Source: an uncultured Gammaproteobacteria bacterium
Lineage (GTDB): Bacteria; Patescibacteriota; Patescibacteriia; UBA1558; UBA10009
DNA length: 64,000 nucleotides
Reading direction: 5' to 3'
Assembly (NCBI GenBank): GCA_964588165.1
Contig: CAZPMS010000002.1
Coordinates: 15,951-79,950, forward strand
The notes beneath the pieces were generated by a model. The model saw only the letters and a program-made list of their open reading frames with translations. It had not been told where the DNA came from and ran no database searches. The translations under genes were made by a program, and so were the position numbers. Positions within the stretch are counted from its first letter, which is position 1; every line of letters starts with the position of its first letter. This document shows, piece by piece, positions 1-52,438 of the stretch.

Positions 1-587
1 TTAGCATATTTAATTAAAATCTCAGTATCTTTTTCATTAGGGTTGTTTTCTTGGTCTATATGAACATGGATTTTTTTATTCAAATTTTTAGCGATGGAAA
101 AGAGCAAATCATAATTCTCTTTATCATTTGGCCTATCTTTTGAAGGCAATCCGCCAACAATATCTGCTTTGGCAGTAATTTCTTCAAAAAGTTTTCTGGC
201 CTGCCCATCAATTAGTCCTCCTAATGGTTGGGTAATGGTTACCAGTTTTATTTTATCTTTGTACTCCTCTTTAACTTTATTGGCAGCATCAATGGCTTTG
301 TGGCCTACAGCGTCATAAGCATCTACAAAAGTGGCTGTAAGTTTGCAGCCTTGTTCAACTAAAAAATCTAAAGCTGTTTTAATTCGCTTCTCAATTTGTT
401 TTTGTGTGGAATTGCGTTTAATATCATCACTCATTAGCCATTTTTGTTCCATATCCACCATGGTTTTATCCAGACCTTCTTTAGTTATGTAGTAAGCTTT
501 GTCAAAATGGGCATGGCAACTTACAAAACCACCCTTAGCTTTTATGGCTTCCAGTATTTGTTGTTTAAGGTTCCAGGGATTAGTCAT
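1..587 (-). CDS. Metal-dependent amidohydrolase-family protein, partial. The N-terminal 195 aa are present and the C-terminus runs off the window edge. It is cytosine/adenine deaminase-like.
   Basis: Manual translation from the ATG at 587: MTNPWNLKQQILEAIKAKGGFVSCHAHFDKAYY...HVHIDQ. The HxH motif near the N-terminus and a later HVH..D are typical of the amidohydrolase superfamily. No in-frame stop occurs before position 1. Confidence 0.45.
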   Translation of the reverse strand, partial: MTNPWNLKQQILEAIKAKGGFVSCHAHFDKAYYITKEGLDKTMVDMEQKWLMSDDIKRNSTQKQIEKRIKTALDFLVEQGCKLTATFVDAYDAVGHKAIDAANKVKEEYKDKIKLVTITQPLGGLIDGQARKLFEEITAKADIVGGLPSKDRPNDKENYDLLFSIAKNLNKKIHVHIDQENNPNEKDTEILIKYA

Positions 588-598
588 ATGATTAAAAA

Positions 599-660
599 TT
601 AATGATTGCCGCGCCCCGCTTGTGAAGCGAAGCGGAGTCGGGCCGGGGATAATTAAAAAT
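599..660. repeat. GC-rich repeat family B, copy 1. Its core 'ccgcgccccgcttgtgaagcgaagcggagtcgggccgggg' lies about 20 bp upstream of the start of the minus-strand gene 1..587.
   Basis: It is near-identical (1 mismatch over about 55 bp including the 'taatgattg' leader) to 2448-2497. It is flanked by the direct repeat 'attaaaaatt' (591-600 and 652-661). Confidence 0.7.
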
Positions 661-812
661 TTGATATATAAAAAAACCGCCTACTTAGGCGATAAATTTT
701 GGGAAAATAGATACTACGGCCTGCCTTGGGCGACCTGAATTTTTTTGAATTTTTCCACATCGTCCGAACATCTATAATAGTATATATCTTTTATTTAGGC
801 GGGTCAAATAGT

Positions 813-1529
813 TTACCAACCTTTGTTTTCTATGGCTTTTTGAGCAGCATCTACCTGCGCTTCTTGCTTAGAAGTGCCTTCGCCTTCGGCAATTAGTTCA
901 TTCTCTAAATAAACACCAACCTTAAAGAATTTATTGTGGTCTGGTCCGTTTTCTTCCAAAACTTTATAAACCGGAGTAGTGCTAAAGAATTCCTGGGATT
1001 TTTCCTGAAATTTACTTTTAGGGTCTTGGTAGAGATGATTTTCTAAGATATGAGGCAGTTTTATTAAAATATTATCACTAATAAATTTATCAGCTGCTTT
1101 CATTCCTTGATCTAAATAAATAGCTCCAATAATAGCTTCCATGGCATTAGCCAAAATATAATTACGGGCCTTAGGATTGGCATCCTGTTTTTCGCCTTTG
1201 CTCATATACAAAAATTCTTCAATTTCCAGTGCGCTGGCAATTTCGGCCAACATCTTGGCGTTAACCAAGCTGGCACGCCAATTGGTTAGCTCGCCTTCTG
1301 GGTTAGGATAGTTTTTATAAAGGTATTCCGTGGTGACCATCTCTAAAACAGCATCGCCCAAAAATTCCAACCTTTCATTGTGGTCTAGGGGAAAATTTTT
1401 ATGTTCATTAATGTATGAACGATGGACGATAGATGATTTTAGGAAATCTTGATTTTTAAAAGATAAGCCAAGATTTTTTTCTAACTTTTTTAGTTCTTTC
1501 ATAAATTGTAGTTGTATAGCGTATAACAT
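813..1529 (-). CDS. rnc: Ribonuclease III
   Basis: The ERLEFLGDAVL RNase III signature is present, and a C-terminal dsRBD-like region (KFFKVGVYLENELIAEGEGTSKQEAQ). Confidence 0.9.
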   Translation of the reverse strand: MLYAIQLQFMKELKKLEKNLGLSFKNQDFLKSSIVHRSYINEHKNFPLDHNERLEFLGDAVLEMVTTEYLYKNYPNPEGELTNWRASLVNAKMLAEIASALEIEEFLYMSKGEKQDANPKARNYILANAMEAIIGAIYLDQGMKAADKFISDNILIKLPHILENHLYQDPKSKFQEKSQEFFSTTPVYKVLEENGPDHNKFFKVGVYLENELIAEGEGTSKQEAQVDAAQKAIENKGW

Positions 1530-1571
1530 GTAACGTGTATAGGATACACGATGCAGGCTATACGTTAAACG
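1521..1571. repeat. Repeat family D (TACACG / ACGT-rich, about 50 bp) in the spacer between the nusB-NUDIX stop and the rnc start.
   Basis: 'gctatacgttaaacgtta' and 'cgtgtataggatacacg' resemble 37841-37908, which sits upstream of the Nif3-like gene. The 'acgtcac' units are also found inside tsaD (15255-15285). Confidence 0.5.
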
Positions 1572-2435
1572 TTATTTAATATTTAATTTTTTAAAAGCTG
1601 CATTTAAAATCCCTAAAGCATTTTCGTAGCCGACTATTTTTTTAGCCTCATCTTTATTTACCCATTTAGCGTCTTTTACTTCTGGCTCATTGGTGATTTT
1701 TAATTTGTCATCAGTAGTTTCTATTAAAAAGTAGTAGACAGTTTTAGGAACAGGCCTTTTATTTGGCTCTTTTACTTTTATTTCAATACTATCTAAATAA
1801 CCTAAACTTTTTACATTGTTTACTCCGATTTCTTCTTTAATTTCCCTTAGGGCGGCATTTTCTTTGTCCTCATTTTCTTTTATGTGGCCTTTGGGGAAAG
1901 TCCATTTGTTATAGGCATCTAAAATTAAAGCGAATTTATAATTATTATCCTCTTTTTTAAAAACTACGCCACCGGCAGAAAATTCTTTTGGCGGTTCGGT
2001 TTCAAATTCTTTTTTTTCGCCGGTTTTTTGCATGTCTTTAAAAACACTGCCTAAAACTCCGTTAACAAATTTACCAGAAGATTCACCGCCATAAGTTTTT
2101 GCCAACTCAATAGCTTCATTAATAGCAACTTTTGGAGGAATTTCTTTAGAAAATTTTAATTCAAAAATTCCAATACGCAAAACATTTCTATCTACTGTGG
2201 TAATTTGTTCAATTGGCCACTCCGGAGCATATTTTTTTATCATTTTATCAATTTCGGGAACTTTTTCAGCGATACTTTTAATTAGATTTTTAGAAAAATC
2301 TTGATCATCAAAACCCTGTGCAAATTCATCTCGATTATTCTCTAAAAGTTTTTGTAGGTTTTCTTTTTTTTCATTAAAGTCCCATTGGAAAAGACTTTGT
2401 AAAACTAAAGTTCTGGCTAAATGTCTGTTGGACAT
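1572..2435 (-). CDS. nusB: NusB (transcription antitermination factor) N-terminal domain fused to a C-terminal NUDIX hydrolase domain.
   Basis: N-terminus: LARTLVLQSLFQWDF...DRNVLRIGIFEL...KVAINEAIELAKTYGGESSGKFVNGVLGSV, which is NusB-like. C-terminus: GGVVFKK...GHIKENEDKENAALREIKEEIGV, a Nudix box of the form Gx5Ex7REUxEExGU. Confidence 0.8.
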   Translation of the reverse strand: MSNRHLARTLVLQSLFQWDFNEKKENLQKLLENNRDEFAQGFDDQDFSKNLIKSIAEKVPEIDKMIKKYAPEWPIEQITTVDRNVLRIGIFELKFSKEIPPKVAINEAIELAKTYGGESSGKFVNGVLGSVFKDMQKTGEKKEFETEPPKEFSAGGVVFKKEDNNYKFALILDAYNKWTFPKGHIKENEDKENAALREIKEEIGVNNVKSLGYLDSIEIKVKEPNKRPVPKTVYYFLIETTDDKLKITNEPEVKDAKWVNKDEAKKIVGYENALGILNAAFKKLNIK

Positions 2436-2441
2436 AAATTG

Positions 2442-2509
2442 ATGATTAATGATTGCCGCGCCCCGCTTGCGAAGCGAAGCGGAGTCGGGCCGGGGATGAT
2501 TAATGATTG
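2442..2509. repeat. GC-rich repeat family B, copy 2. A 40-bp GC core (2456-2495) is flanked by a perfect 14-bp direct repeat 'atgattaatgattg' (2442-2455 and 2496-2509).
   Basis: The core differs from copy 1 at a single position. It lies 20 bp upstream of the nusB-NUDIX start codon. The flanking direct repeats look like a target-site duplication. Confidence 0.75.
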
Positions 2510-2540
2510 ATTAAGTTAGTTAAAAATCATCGTTTATAGT

Positions 2541-2777: not shown

Positions 2778-2806
2778 AGTATAGGTAAATGAGATCTTTT
2801 TGTCAA
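2778..2806 (-). promoter_or_regulatory. Sigma70-like promoter for rpmF: TTGACA, 17-bp spacer, TATACT.
   Basis: The reverse complement reads ttgacaaaaagatctcatttacctatact. Confidence 0.5.
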
Positions 2807-2865: not shown

Positions 2866-3120
2866 TGACAAACTATTTAATTTTTGCTAAGCTTAGAGGT
2901 CATTTTGAAGATTGCCAACTACTCTGGATTCTGCGTCCACGACAAGCATGGGGATTATTGTCAGCGCTTCTTATTTGGCGGCCATTGGTTTGCTCGATAT
3001 GTGCTAGCAATAATTTTCTTGGGCGCAGTATCTAGGGTAGTTTTTTTATTACCCCACGACTCGCTACTTTTAGTCGCCTGCTCTCGGGGACCCCGATATG
3101 AATATTGTTTATGTTAAATT
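2866..3120 (+). ncRNA. Candidate structured noncoding RNA, class unknown. It is a GC-rich, roughly 210-nt unit downstream of a TTGACA-17-TAAGCT promoter (2866-2894).
   Basis: This is a roughly 50% GC island in 35% GC surroundings. It has several stem-loops (gggta/taccc at 3036-3056, cgact/agtcg at 3061-3080, cgggg/ccccg) and a direct repeat 'ccacgac'. The only ORF here (2884..3117) is Cys-rich and not protein-like. Confidence 0.3.
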
Positions 3121-23199: not shown

Positions 23200-26100
23200 A
23201 TGAAAGAATTATCTAAATCATATCAGCCAGATAAACACGAAAGCTCAATTTACCAAAAATGGGAAGAGTCCGGGTTTTTTAATCCCGATAATTTGCCAGG
23301 CAAGCGCAAGAAAGTTTTTTCTGTTAGCCTGCCGCCGCCCAATGCTACCGGCATTTTGCATATTGGCCATGCTTCGATGCTGGCTTACCAAGATATTATG
23401 GTCCGGTACCATAGGCTAAAAGGTGATAAAACTTTGTGGTTGCCCGGAACAGACCACGCAGCCATTGCCACTCAAACGGTGGTAGAAAAAAAATTAATCA
23501 AGGAAGAAAAAAAGCGCAAAGAAGATATTGGCCGAGAAGAGTTCAGAAAAAGAATAGATAAATATGTAGAAGAATCCCGTGGCACCATCCGTAAACAGCT
23601 CCGGGCCATGGGCTCATCTTTAGATTGGTCTAGAGAAAGATTTACCTTAGATAAAGATTTATCATTAGCAGTTAGAACAGCTTTTGCGAAAATGTATAAT
23701 GATGGACTAATTTATAGAGGTTATCGGATTGTTAATTGGTGCCCGCACTGTAAATCCACTTTAGCTGATGACGAAGTTGAGTATAAGGAACAAAAGGCCC
23801 CGTTTTATTATTTTAAATACGGTCCGGTGGTTATTGGTACAGCCAGACCAGAAACTAAATTTTCTGATAAAGTAATTATTGTTCATCCTAAAGATAAGCG
23901 TTTTAAAGATATCGCAGGTAAGGAATTTGAAGTGGAATGGATTAACGGCAAGATTAAAGCAAAAGTTATTACCGATGAAGCAGCTGATATGGAAATGGGA
24001 ACCGGGGCCATGACCATTACTCCGGCCCATAGTTTTGTAGATTTTGATTTGGCTCAAAAATATAAATTAAAGGTAGAAGAAATAATTGATAAAGATGGAA
24101 ATTTAACAGAAGTTGCTGGTGAATTTGCTGGTCAACCAGCTGCTAAAGCCAGAGAGAAAATTGTTAATAAGCTGGCCAAGAAAGGCTTAGTTGATAAAAT
24201 TGATGAAGATTACGTCCATAATTTATCTCTTTGTTACCGGTGTAAAACGCCTATTGAACCGTTGCCTTCTAAGCAGTGGTTTGTTGATGTAAATAAAAAG
24301 ATTCCAAAAAAAGGCAAGTCATTAAAGCAACTGGCCTCCGATGTAGTCAAAAATGGTGATATAAAAATAATTCCTGATAAATTCAACAAAACTTATTTCC
24401 AGTGGATGGATAATTTAAGAGATTGGTGTATTAGCCGCCAAATTTGGTATGGACATCAAATTCCGGTTTGGTATAGGGACGCAAAAGCGCAAAAGCGCAA
24501 AAGCGCAAAAAAGGAGCAAGATATTATTGTACCTAAAGAAATAACTGAAATCAATCTAATGCGCCACGGTTTAACTGATTGGAACAAAGACCAAAAAATT
24601 CAGGGCAGAACTAACGTGCCTCTAGATGAATCCAGCGTAGATAAAATTAATAAAATAATGCCTCAGTTAAGGTCAGAAAATTTTGATATAATTATTAGCT
24701 CACCCTTAATGAGAGCCAAACAAACGGCTGAAATTGTAAATAAACAATTAAATCTGCCTTTAATAGAAGATGAATTATTGGTTGAAAGAAATTATGGTAA
24801 ATTTGAAGGGAAAAAAGTAAATGATATAAAAAATGACCATCCTGATTATGCCAAGGATAAAATTAATTATGATATCCCAGGAGATGATGAAGAAACCTAC
24901 CAGGAGATTGCTCAAAGGCTGAAGAAGTTCATTAAACAAGTAAGTAAAGAATATCCTAACAAGAAAATTTTAGTTATATGCCACAATGCAGTTATCAGGA
25001 CTTTCAAGATGATAATAAAGGATTCCTCACCTAAGGAACTTTCTGGCTATAAACCTAGTTTTGACAAGTTGGTTAAATATCAAATTTTAGATGGTAACTA
25101 TAACCTAAAAGGTGTTGAGCAAGATCCTGACACTTTAGATACCTGGTTTTCATCTTCACTTTGGACATTTAGTACTCTTGGCTGGCCAGATAAAACTGAC
25201 GATCTTAAGGCTTATCATCCAACCAGTGTTATGGAAACCGGTTATGACATTTTATTTTTTTGGGTGGCCAGAATGATACTTATGTCCGAATACCTTTTAG
25301 GCCAGAAACCTTTTGAAACAGTTTACCTCCACGGCTTGGTTAAAGATAAAGAAGGCAGGAAGATGTCAAAGTCGCTTGGCAATGGCATTGATCCAATAGC
25401 CATGATTGATAAGTTTGGCACTGATGCTTTGCGGTTGGCTATGATTGTAGGAGCCAGTGCCGGTAATGACATCAGGCTTTACGAAGAAAAGATAGCCGGC
25501 TATAGGAACTTTGTTAATAAACTTTGGAACATCAGCCGCTACATATTATCTACTGTTGGACAAGTTAAACCAATTGAAAAATTGCCAGAAGCAAAAACTT
25601 TAGCTGATAAATGGATTCTTTTAGAATTTAATCAAATCGTAGAATCAACCACTGGTAATATTGAACAGTTTAAGTTCTCTCAAGCCGGTGAAGAGCTTTA
25701 TGAATTTACTTGGTCTAAACTGGCCGATTGGTATTTGGAAATCGCCAAGGTTGAAGAGGGAAAAGATGAGATCCTTTTATACATTTTAGAAAAGCTACTT
25801 ATTTTATGGCATCCCTTTTGTCCGTTTATTACAGAAGTTATTTGGGAGATATTTAAGACAGATAAGCTATTGATGATTAAAGAATGGCCGGAAATAAAGA
25901 AACAAGATATAAAAAACAAGATACAAGATGAATTTGAAAAAGTTCAAGAGATTGTTTCAGCTATCAGGAACACCAGGGCAGAACATCTGGCTAATCCCAA
26001 AAAAGTTTATGGTTGTTCTATAAAAACTTCAAAGAAAAAAGTGATTGAAGAGAATAAAAATATAATTGAAGCTTTGGCCAAAATTAAAATTATTCCTAAG

Positions 26101-26334
26101 GCCACTGGCGTTGCTATTAATCTTGCTTGGGCTGACATGATTTTAGATATTAAGGAAAATAGGGAAGTGGCCAAAAATAAAGCTAAAGAAACTGTAAATT
26201 TAGAACGTTATATCCAAATCCAAGAAGCAAAATTAAGGAATAAAGATTTTACTAAAAAGGCTCCACCTAAAGTGGTGGAGGAAGAAAAGGAGAAATTATC
26301 GCAAGCAAAAGAAAAGTTAGCCAAATTAAAATAG
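23200..26334 (+). CDS. valS: Valyl-tRNA synthetase carrying an inserted histidine-phosphatase (PGAM-like) domain.
   Basis: HIGH motif (PPPNATGILHIGHA). WCISRQIWYGHQIPVWY. KMSKS. C-terminal coiled coil. About 213 extra aa lie between PVWY and DPDTLDTWFSS. They contain LMRHGLTDWN (RHG), GKFEG and ICHNAVIR, the catalytic motifs of the histidine phosphatase superfamily. Confidence 0.9.
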   Translation: MKELSKSYQPDKHESSIYQKWEESGFFNPDNLPGKRKKVFSVSLPPPNATGILHIGHASMLAYQDIMVRYHRLKGDKTLWLPGTDHAAIATQTVVEKKLIKEEKKRKEDIGREEFRKRIDKYVEESRGTIRKQLRAMGSSLDWSRERFTLDKDLSLAVRTAFAKMYNDGLIYRGYRIVNWCPHCKSTLADDEVEYKEQKAPFYYFKYGPVVIGTARPETKFSDKVIIVHPKDKRFKDIAGKEFEVEWINGKIKAKVITDEAADMEMGTGAMTITPAHSFVDFDLAQKYKLKVEEIIDKDGNLTEVAGEFAGQPAAKAREKIVNKLAKKGLVDKIDEDYVHNLSLCYRCKTPIEPLPSKQWFVDVNKKIPKKGKSLKQLASDVVKNGDIKIIPDKFNKTYFQWMDNLRDWCISRQIWYGHQIPVWYRDAKAQKRKSAKKEQDIIVPKEITEINLMRHGLTDWNKDQKIQGRTNVPLDESSVDKINKIMPQLRSENFDIIISSPLMRAKQTAEIVNKQLNLPLIEDELLVERNYGKFEGKKVNDIKNDHPDYAKDKINYDIPGDDEETYQEIAQRLKKFIKQVSKEYPNKKILVICHNAVIRTFKMIIKDSSPKELSGYKPSFDKLVKYQILDGNYNLKGVEQDPDTLDTWFSSSLWTFSTLGWPDKTDDLKAYHPTSVMETGYDILFFWVARMILMSEYLLGQKPFETVYLHGLVKDKEGRKMSKSLGNGIDPIAMIDKFGTDALRLAMIVGASAGNDIRLYEEKIAGYRNFVNKLWNISRYILSTVGQVKPIEKLPEAKTLADKWILLEFNQIVESTTGNIEQFKFSQAGEELYEFTWSKLADWYLEIAKVEEGKDEILLYILEKLLILWHPFCPFITEVIWEIFKTDKLLMIKEWPEIKKQDIKNKIQDEFEKVQEIVSAIRNTRAEHLANPKKVYGCSIKTSKKKVIEENKNIIEALAKIKIIPKATGVAINLAWADMILDIKENREVAKNKAKETVNLERYIQIQEAKLRNKDFTKKAPPKVVEEEKEKLSQAKEKLAKLK

Positions 26335-45764: not shown

Positions 45765-45795
45765 GGACCCCGCTGCTCGCGAGCGGCAGGGGTGG
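45765..45795. repeat. Palindrome family A copy 1 (ccccgctgctcgcgagcggcagggg), intergenic.
   Basis: The core gctcgcgagc is perfectly palindromic. Other copies are at 46275-46304 and 47723-47747. Confidence 0.7.
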
Positions 45796-46274: not shown

Positions 46275-46304
46275 CAACCCAGCTGCTCGCGAGCGGCTGG
46301 GTTG
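46275..46304. repeat. Palindrome family A copy 2 (caacccagctgctcgcgagcggctgggttg).
   Basis: Near-perfect 30-bp palindrome in intergenic DNA. Confidence 0.7.
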
Positions 46305-47114: not shown

Positions 47115-48215
47115 TTATTTGTTAAATAAAAAGTAAACAGTATCACCGTCTTTTATTGGGTAGTTTTTACCTTCAGTTTTAATTAGGCCCTGTTCTTTAG
47201 CTTGAATTTCTCCGCCAGCTTCAATTAAACTTTGCCAATTTACAATTTCGGCTCTAATAAAGCCCTGTTCAAAATCGGTATGGATAACTCCGGCTGCCTG
47301 CGGTGCCTGCGTGCCACTTTCAACAGTCCAGGCATGGGCTTCTTTTGGGCCGGCAGTGAAGAAGGTTATGAGATTTAAAAGATTGTAAGATTGTAAGATT
47401 AATTTATCTAAACCACTTTGGCTTATGCCGAGTGTTTCTAAATATTGTTTAGCCTCAACGGCTGGCATAGAGGCCAGTTCAGATTCTAACTTGGCAGATA
47501 TGGTTAAGTAAGGTTTTTTATAATGATCCTTGGATTTAGTTAGTTCATTTTCAGAAACATTATAAACATAAAGGATTGGTTTATAAGTTAGAAGATTTAA
47601 TTCTTTAATAAATTTAATATCTTCATCAGCTACTTCTAAATTAATAGCAAATTTTTCTTCTTCCAGAATCTTTTTTAAGTTTTTTAAAATTTCAATGTTT
47701 TTTAAAAGAATTTTGTCTTTTGACCCAGCTGCTCGCGAGCGGCTGGGAGAACCTTTAGCTTGCTTGGTTAGTTTTTCTAAAAGACCATTAACCGTTTCTA
47801 AGTCGGCCAGGATTAATTCTAAATTAATAGTTTTTACATCATCTTCCGGATCAATTTTGCCGTTTACATGAATTATATCGTCATTAGCAAAATCTCTAAC
47901 CACCTCAGCAATCGCATCAACCTCTCTTATATGAGAAAGGAATTTATTGCCTAAGCCTTCACCATCGGCTGCGCCCTTTACTAGGCCTGCAATATCTACA
48001 AATTCAATAGCGGTTGGTACTACTTTGGGAGAATTATAAAGCTGGGCAAGCTTGTCTAACCTATTATCAGGAACGGCCACCACACCTACATTAGGCTCAA
48101 TAGTGCAAAATGGATAATTAGAAGCATCCACCTGATTTTTAGTTAGGGCAGTAAATAAAGTTGATTTGCCTACATTAGGCAAGCCCACAATGCCGATTGA
48201 AAAACTCATAAACAA
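47115..48215 (-). CDS. ychF: Ribosome-binding ATPase YchF (Obg-like). It carries an in-frame family A palindrome insertion (SPSRSRAAGS).
   Basis: GIVGLPNVGKSTLF. TGS domain. C-terminal ...LNLITFFTAGPKEAHAWT. Confidence 0.85.
   Translation of the reverse strand: MFMSFSIGIVGLPNVGKSTLFTALTKNQVDASNYPFCTIEPNVGVVAVPDNRLDKLAQLYNSPKVVPTAIEFVDIAGLVKGAADGEGLGNKFLSHIREVDAIAEVVRDFANDDIIHVNGKIDPEDDVKTINLELILADLETVNGLLEKLTKQAKGSPSRSRAAGSKDKILLKNIEILKNLKKILEEEKFAINLEVADEDIKFIKELNLLTYKPILYVYNVSENELTKSKDHYKKPYLTISAKLESELASMPAVEAKQYLETLGISQSGLDKLILQSYNLLNLITFFTAGPKEAHAWTVESGTQAPQAAGVIHTDFEQGFIRAEIVNWQSLIEAGGEIQAKEQGLIKTEGKNYPIKDGDTVYFLFNK
47723..47747. repeat. Palindrome family A copy 3, inside the ychF coding sequence and in frame.
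   Basis: acccagctgctcgcgagcggctggg. Confidence 0.7.
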
Positions 48216-52358: not shown

Positions 52359-52438
52359 TACGCCCGCCCGCCATGGCTCCGCCGAAGGCGAGTCGGGCGG
52401 GGAGCAGATAATTTATGAAGTTTCAATCAGGGATTAAT

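Follow-up and report, generated by a model that had tools for sequence, protein, structure and literature searches.

Two copies of a GC-rich core, CCGCGCCCCGCTTGYGAAGCGAAGCGGAGTCGGGCCGGGG, lie in AT-rich leaders of a Patescibacteria (Komeilibacteria-like) genome. We favor, with moderate confidence, an explanation in which the core and its short AT-rich arms constitute a small non-coding, non-autonomous insertion element, representing a new REP-like or GC-cluster-like family in the AT-rich leaders of this one lineage. The core had been described in a sequence-only reading of the window (the whole 64-kb stretch of DNA analyzed) as a 40-bp sequence of 80% GC, located about 20 bp 5′ of two minus-strand start codons, and we confirmed both its presence and its placement (Table 1). 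The two copies differ at a single position, Y (T/C), and no match was obtained in 100 dinucleotide shuffles, in agreement with a chance expectation of none. They are the two richest GC islands in the first 7 kb of the window, which has a GC content of 36.7% as a whole. The genes 3′ of the cores encode an Amidohydro_1 protein and a NusB+NUDIX fusion (Pfam entries). Since the element sequence is identical among contigs from at least 8 independent samples or assemblies, an assembly artefact is ruled out. The core contains no stop codon in any of the six frames; a small + strand peptide (22 aa at copy 2) was considered and dropped, for lack of conservation at copy 1. A possible role of GAGTC as a restriction site was also dropped, since the count of this pentamer is low (27; the median for pentamers of equal composition is 56) without being an outlier.

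Table 1. Positions of the two core copies, their surroundings and two further GC-rich hairpins in the window.
Feature	Position	Strand	Remarks
Terminator of the pyr leader to amidohydrolase ATG	588..668	-	~53 nt longer than in relatives; holds copy 1
10-bp direct repeat ATTAAAAATT, left member	591..600	+	Copy 1; 8 nt from core
AT-rich arm ATTAATGATTG	598..608	+	Adjoins copy 1 on the low-coordinate side; identical to 2445-2455
Core copy 1 (E1)	609..648	+	T at variable position; 21 nt 5′ of amidohydrolase ATG (585-587, minus strand)
AT-rich arm ATAATTAA	649..656	+	Copy 1, high-coordinate side; counterpart at copy 2 is ATGATTAA
10-bp direct repeat ATTAAAAATT, right member	652..661	+	Copy 1; 3 nt from core
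Intrinsic terminator of conserved ~100-nt leader	669..693	-	Stem 693-676 and T run; copy 1 just downstream
Promoter-like TTGACC-17-TATACT	779..807	-	Predicted to drive leader and amidohydrolase/pyr operon
Expanded rpmF(L32)-nusB intercistronic spacer	2436..2540	-	105 nt, vs 10-13 nt in five relatives; holds copy 2
14-bp direct repeat ATGATTAATGATTG, left member	2442..2455	+	Copy 2; unit of (Y)AATCAT array with 7/14-nt period
AT-rich arm ATTAATGATTG	2445..2455	+	Adjoins copy 2 on the low-coordinate side
Core copy 2 (E2)	2456..2495	+	C at variable position; 20 nt 5′ of nusB-NUDIX ATG (2433-2435, minus strand)
AT-rich arm ATGATTAA	2496..2503	+	Copy 2, high-coordinate side
14-bp direct repeat ATGATTAATGATTG, right member	2496..2509	+	Copy 2
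Promoter-like TTGACA-17-TATACT	2778..2806	-	Upstream of rpmF
GC hairpin E4, possibly related	3052..3094	-	Ends in GCGAGTCGTGGGG; within ~85-nt insertion absent from four relatives
GC hairpin E3, possibly related	52361..52402	+	Shares GAAG..GAGTCGGGC(C)GGGG with core; absent from relatives

Both sites are empty in related genomes. Five relatives (L005/L006, L007/L008, L009, L034 and L036), with 72–78% protein identity, carry no core at either orthologous site, where the sequence-only reading had proposed to look for empty sites; its own alternative, a leader conserved among orthologs, can thus be dismissed. Given these empty sites and the short rpmF–nusB spacer of the five relatives, both copies are, by sequence comparison, lineage-specific insertions and not parts of a conserved leader. 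A conserved leader or riboswitch is ruled out by the empty sites in combination with the Rfam results: between positions 560 and 2900, nothing matched at the gathering score or with E ≤ 10, except for a chance-level snoZ188 match (E = 7.1). This match (638–724) overlaps the end of copy 1. The flanked genes, nusB-NUDIX and rnc, are ancestral and keep the same synteny in every relative, which rules out att sites of an integrated island around nusB–rnc.

The likeness between E1 and E2 extends past the core, over 59 nt at 96.6% identity or 71 nt at 90% (repeat family D7). The unit common to both consists of ATTAATGATTG, the core and ATRATTAA. In gene orientation, both cores split one AT-rich sequence at the identical nucleotide, TTAATYAT^CAATCATTAAT. 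A core-less form of an occupied site would join TTAATCAT straight onto CAATCATTAAT.

The direct repeats reported to flank the two copies, of 14 and 10 bp, are both present and perfect. The 14-bp repeat directly abuts copy 2 on both sides; the 10-bp repeat is not adjacent to copy 1, with offsets of 8 nt and 3 nt. Their interpretation as target-site duplications is ambiguous. Such repeats are longer than expected by chance, as flanking repeats of at least 10 bp were found at 0.3%, and of at least 14 bp at 0%, of ∼1,500 random intergenic positions in the window. However, the two repeats differ in length and position, and the 14-mer also occurs without a core, as a perfect tandem array of 2.1 copies (L003 12865-12893) before the lyase gene, the next gene but one, just beyond the window. 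This lyase leader corresponds to the flanks of copy 2 minus exactly the 40-bp core, with 27 nt identical. In view of this core-less array, the 14-bp “duplication” of copy 2 may have been an array already in place, or else the footprint of an excision. If the element is taken as 40 bp with a 14-bp duplication, copy 2 fits perfectly and copy 1 at only 10 of 14 positions. If it is instead taken as 51 bp with a 10-bp duplication, the matches are 10/10 and 9/10, but the core-less lyase array is left unexplained. The ends of the element are thus ambiguous. AATCAT arrays were found in only three neighboring leaders in 72 kb of this genome and in none of the 85 kb from relatives, which argues that the arrays and the core belong together.

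The clustering of these sites could also be explained by local copying, an account that we regard as possible but less probable. A GC-rich fragment, perhaps foreign filler DNA, would have been captured once in one AT-rich leader and then transferred to the similar leader next to it, through ectopic gene conversion, template switching or repair mediated by microhomology; no mobile element would be involved and the AATCAT arrays would be slippage products of these low-complexity leaders. Several observations are consistent with this account. The copies are in the same orientation only 1.85 kb apart, the three array-bearing leaders all lie within 3.4 kb, and no other core was found in 72 kb or in the database scans. 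The flanks of copy 1 match those of copy 2 over 11 nt on the right and 8 nt on the left, as would be the case for a copied patch that took in the flanks, the exact 7/14-nt periodicity of the arrays is typical of slippage, and no transposase gene is nearby. However, gene conversion would have had very short homology arms (8–11 nt) to work with, and simple conversion does not predict that copy 1 has a 10-bp flanking duplication of its own. In addition, the genome contains other, unrelated GC-rich hairpin insertions, including one in ychF, which points to a general insertion process.

Two further hairpins (E3 and E4) are possibly related to the core, judging from a motif of 13–14 nt. The motif GAGTCG(N0-5)GGG was observed five times compared to 0.6 expected, and four of the five occurrences are in the GC hairpins E1, E2, E3 and E4. 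BLAST revealed no link between E3 and E1/E2, the only common element being the 13–14-nt arm GAGTCGGGC(C)GGGG. A separate hairpin family, D9, has three copies; one of them lies within ychF as an in-frame insertion of 27 nt not present in relatives. The spacers of the pyr operon contain further palindromic insertions seen in this genome only. The orientation of the hairpins with respect to neighboring genes varies, suggesting an element that acts at the level of DNA rather than RNA.

The MITE classification proposed in the sequence-only reading is supported by the insertions, with their flanking repeats and empty sites, but not by other features expected of such elements. The search for further copies, with tabulation of their flanks, covered ∼72 kb of this genome and recovered only the same two, each with a flanking repeat, of 10 bp in one case and 14 bp in the other. 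The core was not detected in 185,579 representative genomes (GTDB), except for two chance matches in GC-rich Acidobacteria, nor in IMG/VR or a JGI metagenome set, from which the source sample is absent. No MITE-type terminal inverted repeats were found, since the core ends CCGCGCCCCG and CGGGCCGGGG pair at only 7 of 10 positions; the only inverted feature of the arms is the self-complementary ATTAAT. Among the ORFs of the window, no transposase, integrase, RAYT or HUH gene was found.

An insertion element of the kind we favor would move as DNA, or be copied as DNA, with a quasi-palindromic AT-rich sequence as the target that it enters or leaves. This may have occurred by target-specific insertion, or by insertion with a 10–14-bp duplication followed by excision that left a footprint. 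The responsible enzyme would act in trans and be encoded elsewhere than nearby. The copies may persist because they are located at least 20 nt 5′ of start codons without a Shine-Dalgarno sequence, such that the AU-rich initiation region would stay unpaired.

The promoter-like site upstream of rpmF would place copy 2 inside an rpmF–nusB–rnc transcript and, according to these promoter models, both copies are in transcribed leader or intercistronic RNA, downstream of predicted promoters. On the mRNA strand, the core alone is predicted to form a hairpin with an 8-bp stem, CUCCGCUU/AAGCGGGG (−15.3 and −17.0 kcal/mol). The hairpin anticipated by the earlier reading is, thus, predicted, but it is no more stable than those of same-composition shuffles (z = −0.6 and −0.4), so its supposed strength mostly reflects the 80% GC content. 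Considered as a palindrome, the core is weak (z about −0.5). A role as an intrinsic terminator was rejected, as neither strand has a T run after the core and the terminator scan lists only the stem at 693-676. A promoter created by the insertion was likewise rejected, since the promoter scan found no sigma-70-like site beside either copy. Intercistronic REPs act as an exonuclease barrier in the malEFG operon of E. coli. A transcribed copy of the core would form a moderate hairpin, which may uncouple nusB from rpmF or block exonucleases; any such effect would probably be small and secondary, and the modulation of translation suggested by the earlier reading is hypothetical.

We consider it rather unlikely that the GC hairpin and AT-rich arm were recruited as a cis-regulatory module, fixed ∼20 nt from the start, that co-regulates nusB and the pyr-type operon through RNA (stability, processing or ribosome standby) or as a protein operator. 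The near-equal spacing from the ATG (21 and 20 nt) might suggest such a module, but is explained by the core occupying the same place in a common AT-rich sequence that abuts the ATG. Transcription of both copies from predicted promoters, a start region that is unpaired in predicted folds, and an element that is fixed and invariant across samples would also be compatible with regulation. However, the core is absent from every relative examined and is therefore not needed to regulate these genes. Furthermore, there is no Rfam family match, the hairpin stability is as composition predicts, and two copies with a single loop difference offer no covariation to read. The possibly related E3 and E4 are also found in other orientations and contexts.

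In combination with their arms, E1 and E2 form a long imperfect hairpin on the + strand only (DNA fold of −15.6 kcal/mol, z = −3.7), a property reminiscent of integron attC sites. The core might then be a recombination site, derived from or recognized like a family of palindromes of ∼68 nt that have RYYYAAC...GTTRRRY at their ends and a 22-nt apex in common with the core; we rate this as very improbable. The scan pattern CGCTTGNGAAGCGAAGCGGAG matched 15 metagenome loci, 11 of which represent one attC-like palindrome family, present in at least 8 contexts, whose arms covary around an invariant apex, CCGCTTGYGAAGCGAAGCGGAGCAAG. E1 and E2 plus arms also span 58 nt, from TTAAT to ATTAA. However, a 20-nt exact match is close to chance for a collection of this size, four unrelated singletons matched as well, and there is no clear likeness past the seed. 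The AAC/GTT triplets are missing from E1 and E2, and the window contains neither an integrase nor a cassette array. No integrase was seen beside the metagenomic palindromes, and neither these nor the copy 2 region match a plasmid record, except for one chance-level match of 25 nt (E = 0.2) between the copy 2 region and a Rhizobium plasmid; the identity of the metagenomic palindromes as attC sites is, as a result, itself only putative.

A bolder form of the insertion-element explanation, which we consider unlikely, is that this lineage harbors very small GC-rich hairpin insertions of a class not described before (candidate families E1/E2, E3, E4 and D9), which colonize AT-rich leaders and even coding sequence, much as GC clusters do in yeast mitochondrial DNA. 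These would insert site-specifically at the centers of AT-rich quasi-palindromes, and their excision would leave 14-bp tandem footprints. The enzyme acting in trans would perhaps read the 22-nt apex that is also conserved in the widespread attC-like palindromes.

Patescibacteria (CPR) genomes are small and streamlined, and we found no description in the literature of short interspersed palindromic repeats in them. Operon spacers of 5–13 bp in the relatives are enlarged here by several unrelated mini-insertions, and one insertion lies in an essential GTPase gene. These observations bear on how reduced genomes tolerate and spread selfish DNA. The presence or absence of the core provides a concrete marker for strain tracking. 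Our results also caution that, unless related genomes have been compared, a GC-rich hairpin in an AT-rich leader should not be taken for a regulator. Were the elements truly mobile with no transposase nearby, they would lend themselves well to a search for the enzyme responsible.

Among known systems, the REP/BIME elements of Proteobacteria are palindromes bearing an unpaired GTAG or CGTC tag at one of their ends, thought to be mobilized by RAYT transposases (PMC3733652). The core resembles them as a GC-rich, non-coding, imperfect palindrome of 20–40 bp between operon genes, with a predicted hairpin in the transcript. Some REP/BIME families are located inside genes, as is the D9 copy in ychF. 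However, the core and its arms contain none of GTAG, CTAC, CGTC or GACG, only two copies are present here (in 72 kb) compared to tens to hundreds, and no RAYT gene was seen in the 64-kb window. The palindrome is also weak here, and the copies are upstream of genes, whereas REPs are mainly downstream. We found no description of REPs in Patescibacteria in the literature, and a 2025 survey of REPs omits the phylum (PMC12306157).

Integron attC sites resemble E1 and E2 in having ∼58 nt and an imperfect hairpin on one strand only, and the metagenomic attC-like palindromes have the 22-nt apex in common with the core, possibly by chance. In contrast, attC sites contain R″ (RYYYAAC) and R′ (GTTRRRY) boxes where the ends here are TTAAT and ATTAA. 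They are located at cassette 3′ ends, in arrays beside intI/attI, whereas the genes here are ancestral and syntenic.

MITEs include the Correia/NEMIS elements of Neisseria and RUP of Streptococcus. Like the core, these non-autonomous insertions are short, are flanked by direct repeats, have empty counterparts in close relatives and can be located in 5′ untranslated regions. The core differs in being shorter (40–71 bp), in lacking terminal inverted repeats apart from the ATTAAT of its arms, in its repeats of 10 and 14 bp, which may come from a pre-existing array, and in having no known parent IS element. Rickettsia palindromic elements (RPEs) are 100–150 bp in length and are not GC-rich islands. 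The hairpins described here are, like them, small palindromic repeats of a reduced AT-rich genome; RPEs can also be inserted in frame within protein-coding genes, as is the D9 copy of ychF. The GC clusters of yeast mitochondria are GC-rich palindromic islands of 30–50 bp in very AT-rich spacers, with no known dedicated transposase. They belong to an organelle rather than a bacterium, and have no sequence similarity to the core, of which the copy number seen here so far is tiny. Nevertheless, both systems consist of GC islands in AT-rich spacers, with lineage-specific presence or absence and several families per genome.

Within the window, the 40-bp core CCGCGCCCCGCTTGYGAAGCGAAGCGGAGTCGGGCCGGGG has exactly two copies, which are identical except at the Y position; no match was found in 100 shuffled sequences. 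The GC content of the window is 36.7%, and both copies form the two richest GC islands in its first 7 kb. The likeness between them runs past the core (59 nt at 96.6%, 71 nt at 90%), and the unit common to both consists of ATTAATGATTG, the core and ATRATTAA. As the sequence-only reading had proposed, each copy is flanked by a direct repeat (14 bp at copy 2, 10 bp at copy 1) and lies just 5′ of a minus-strand start codon, at a distance of 21 nt for the Amidohydro_1 gene and 20 nt for the gene of the NusB-NUDIX fusion. When the 25 nt on each side of ~1,500 sampled random intergenic positions were compared, 0.3% of positions had a repeat of 10 bp or longer and none had one of 14 bp or longer, so the repeats beside the core stand out from background.

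Core copies, hairpins, repeats and neighbouring features (window positions unless a locus is named; L003 is from the same genome and extends left of the window)
Feature	Position	Strand	Remarks
Core, copy 1	609-648	+
Core, copy 2	2456-2495	+
14-bp direct repeat ATGATTAATGATTG	2442-2455 and 2496-2509		Perfect; adjoins copy 2 on both sides
10-bp direct repeat ATTAAAAATT	591-600 and 652-661		Perfect; 8 and 3 nt off copy 1
14-nt tandem array ATTAATCATCAATC, 2.1 copies	L003 12865-12893		Perfect; directly before lyase start codon (Tandem Repeats Finder)
Promoter-like TTGACC-17-TATACT	807-779	-	Followed by ~100-nt leader and intrinsic terminator
Intrinsic terminator	693-676 plus T run	-	Followed by copy 1, then amidohydrolase gene
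Candidate attenuator or riboswitch	669-807	-	Promoter, ~100-nt leader and terminator
Promoter-like TTGACA-17-TATACT	2806-2778	-	Near-consensus; precedes rpmF (ribosomal protein L32)
Promoter-like TTGACA	2867-2872		With RNA candidate
Non-coding RNA candidate	2895-3045	+	VanW-rpmF spacer
E4 hairpin	3052-3094	-	In ~85-nt insertion absent from four relatives
E3 hairpin	52361-52402	+	Absent from two relatives
GC-rich hairpin CCCAGCTGCTCGCGAGCGGCTGGG, three copies	45767-45790, 46277-46300, 47723-47746		Separate; unrelated to core
Larger palindromic MITE-like insertions (two)	L003 14182-14354, 16757-16907		~130-170 bp, long inverted arms; pyr-operon spacers
Extended NusB-NUDIX 3′ end in a relative	L007 5849-5902		GC-rich
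Valyl-tRNA synthetase ORF	23200-26334	+	Inserted domain at residues 452-616
attC-like palindromes	L011-L013, L015-L017, L020-L024		At least 8 genomic contexts; metagenome contigs of 50-63% GC

For comparison, orthologous loci were taken from the closest relatives available (P0002, P0003, P0007 and P0010; NusB-NUDIX identity 72–78%), and the core is absent from every one. The L32 stop is separated from the nusB start by 10–13 bp in all relatives compared, versus 105 bp here. At the other site, the promoter, leader and terminator before the amidohydrolase (or first pyr) gene are conserved in the relatives, where ~25–30 AT-rich nt lie between terminator and ATG, and the alignment reveals a clean insertion here with the core inside. 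A conserved leader common to orthologs, the alternative that the sequence-only reading had set against itself, is ruled out since these sites are empty. At both sites, the core is an insertion specific to this lineage.

Judged from the NusB-NUDIX protein and its homologues, the window belongs to the Patescibacteria, near Candidatus Komeilibacteria. A 165-kb JGI contig carries the same sequence, as do contigs of several other samples and assemblies; their identity is 99% or higher overall, with no variation in the copy-2 region. The core element is genuine, and this population is fixed for it.

The amidohydrolase-lyase spacer of the same genome, left of the window, measures 75 bp compared to 12 bp in relatives and ends in TAATCATCAATCATTAATCATCAATCACT-ATG. 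It carries a tandem array, ~430 bp outside the left end of the window, that is identical over 27 nt (18 nt + 9 nt) to the copy-2 flanks once exactly the 40-bp core is subtracted. In gene orientation, both cores break TTAATYAT^CAATCATTAAT at the same nucleotide, and the same 19-mer is unbroken in the lyase leader. In 72 kb of this genome, (Y)AATCAT arrays are confined to three neighbouring leaders (nusB, amidohydrolase and lyase), and none was found in 85 kb from relatives; we therefore regard the arrays and the core as one phenomenon. The 14-bp repeat can be read as a true duplication made on insertion or as two units of an earlier array that a target-specific insertion separated, and also in a way that makes the lyase array an excision footprint. 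If the element is 40 bp long and duplicates 14 bp, copy 2 fits at 14/14 positions and copy 1 at only 10/14. If it is 51 bp long (AATGATTG-core-ATR) and duplicates 10 bp, both copies fit (10/10 and 9/10), but the lyase array is left unexplained. The element boundaries cannot be fixed from two copies.

The element had been described as MITE-like. The empty sites in relatives support insertion, but other hallmarks of such elements are absent or ambiguous: there are two copies, and a search of the window ORFs for transposase, integrase, RAYT or TnpB-like domains found none. Sensitive BLAST detected no further core copies in the window or the 8.4 kb to its left. Among 185,579 GTDB representative genomes, a core 20-mer gave two matches only, both in GC-rich Acidobacteria and neither extending past the 20-mer, and three core sub-patterns had zero matches in IMG/VR. 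The best-supported account, to which we give an even chance, is that a small insertion element, non-autonomous and of the REP, MITE or GC-cluster kind, invaded AT-rich leaders in a single lineage. A trans-acting enzyme would move or copy the core, which may be tolerated because the ~20-nt initiation region is left free. The tight clustering of the copies, and the finding of no other copy in the data searched, support the main rival, a one-time capture that was then copied locally from one leader to a similar one nearby, which we consider possible but doubtful.

The central 21-mer of the core matched 15 loci, none of them Patescibacteria-like, in a metagenome collection that evidently lacks the source sample. 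Four are unrelated singletons, and 11 belong to a single family of ~68-nt attC-like palindromes with RYYYAAC...GTTRRRY ends, in which the arms covary and the 26-nt apex CCGCTTGYGAAGCGAAGCGGAGCAAG is invariant. The core has 22 nt in common with this apex and no clear likeness past the seed; the AAC/GTT triplets are absent from both core copies. No integrase was seen near the palindromes in two loci checked, and the palindrome gave no plasmid match. Chance matches to a 20-nt pattern in a collection this large are expected to be of order one. The apex match is probably due to chance.

Other GC-rich hairpins have entered this genome. E3 and E4 both end in GCGAGTCG..GGGG, which resembles GCGGAGTCGGGCCGGGG of the core, and the motif GAGTCG(N0-5)GGG occurs 5 times versus 0.6 expected. 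The third CCCAGCTGCTCGCGAGCGGCTGGG copy adds 27 nt in frame (SPSRSRAAG) to the ychF GTPase gene; the relatives' loci L037 and L039 lack this insertion. The pyr-operon spacers expanded here by palindromic insertions are 5–13 bp in relatives (first site compared), with only ~5 bp at the lyase-pyrD site (the first L003 insertion) in L005 and L006. These short hairpins are lineage-specific and vary in orientation relative to neighbouring genes; some process at the DNA level has therefore built up small palindromic insertions in this lineage. Separately, the NusB-NUDIX gene of one relative has 13 additional codons at its 3′ end, and the extra stretch contains TCCGCCGAAGGCG, a 13-mer of the E3 inner hairpin.

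Several further features were observed in the window. The leader upstream of the pyrimidine-type operon may act as a riboswitch or transcription attenuator, whose promoter and terminator are kept in four relatives and which has no Rfam match. The VanW-rpmF spacer holds a conserved, rod-shaped non-coding RNA candidate with long invariant stretches across five genomes and compensatory changes in 10 of 49 predicted pairs; it has no Rfam match and might be a 6S-like RNA. The valyl-tRNA synthetase ORF contains an inserted histidine-phosphatase (His_Phos_1) domain.

On the mRNA strand, the core is predicted to form an 8-bp stem (CUCCGCUU/AAGCGGGG) with a few outer pairs. Predicted energies in context are -20.7 and -21.6 kcal/mol; the z of about -3 arises from the dispersal of GC by shuffling. 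The strong hairpin proposed earlier stands as a predicted stem, but the stability of the core alone (-15.3 and -17.0 kcal/mol) does not exceed that of shuffled sequences with the same composition (z -0.6 and -0.4). The sole difference between the copies falls in the loop. When folded as single-stranded DNA, the plus strand alone gives a long imperfect hairpin of arms and core (-15.6 kcal/mol, z -3.7, copy 2). Rfam gave no match at gathering score and, at E <= 10, just a chance-level snoRNA overlapping the end of copy 1.

Given the promoter-like site upstream of rpmF, copy 2 would lie inside the rpmF-nusB-rnc transcript, between two cistrons. The amidohydrolase gene behind copy 1 heads a pyrimidine-type operon (lyase, PyrD, PyrK, phosphoribosyltransferase and OMP decarboxylase). 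On neither strand is the core followed by a terminator-like T run, and a promoter scan found no promoter-like site created beside it. AT-rich leaders without a Shine-Dalgarno sequence precede most genes here, and the start-codon region is mostly unpaired in predicted 150-nt folds. A recruited regulatory role of the core is improbable: no observation requires one, and the equal spacing to the ATG arises because shared AT-rich sequence abuts the start codon. We regard the core as a new family within a general kind that is already known, of modest importance unless genome-wide data reveal true mobility. Its hairpin may affect the RNA, possibly by uncoupling nusB from rpmF or as a barrier to exonucleases, like the intercistronic REPs in E. 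coli.
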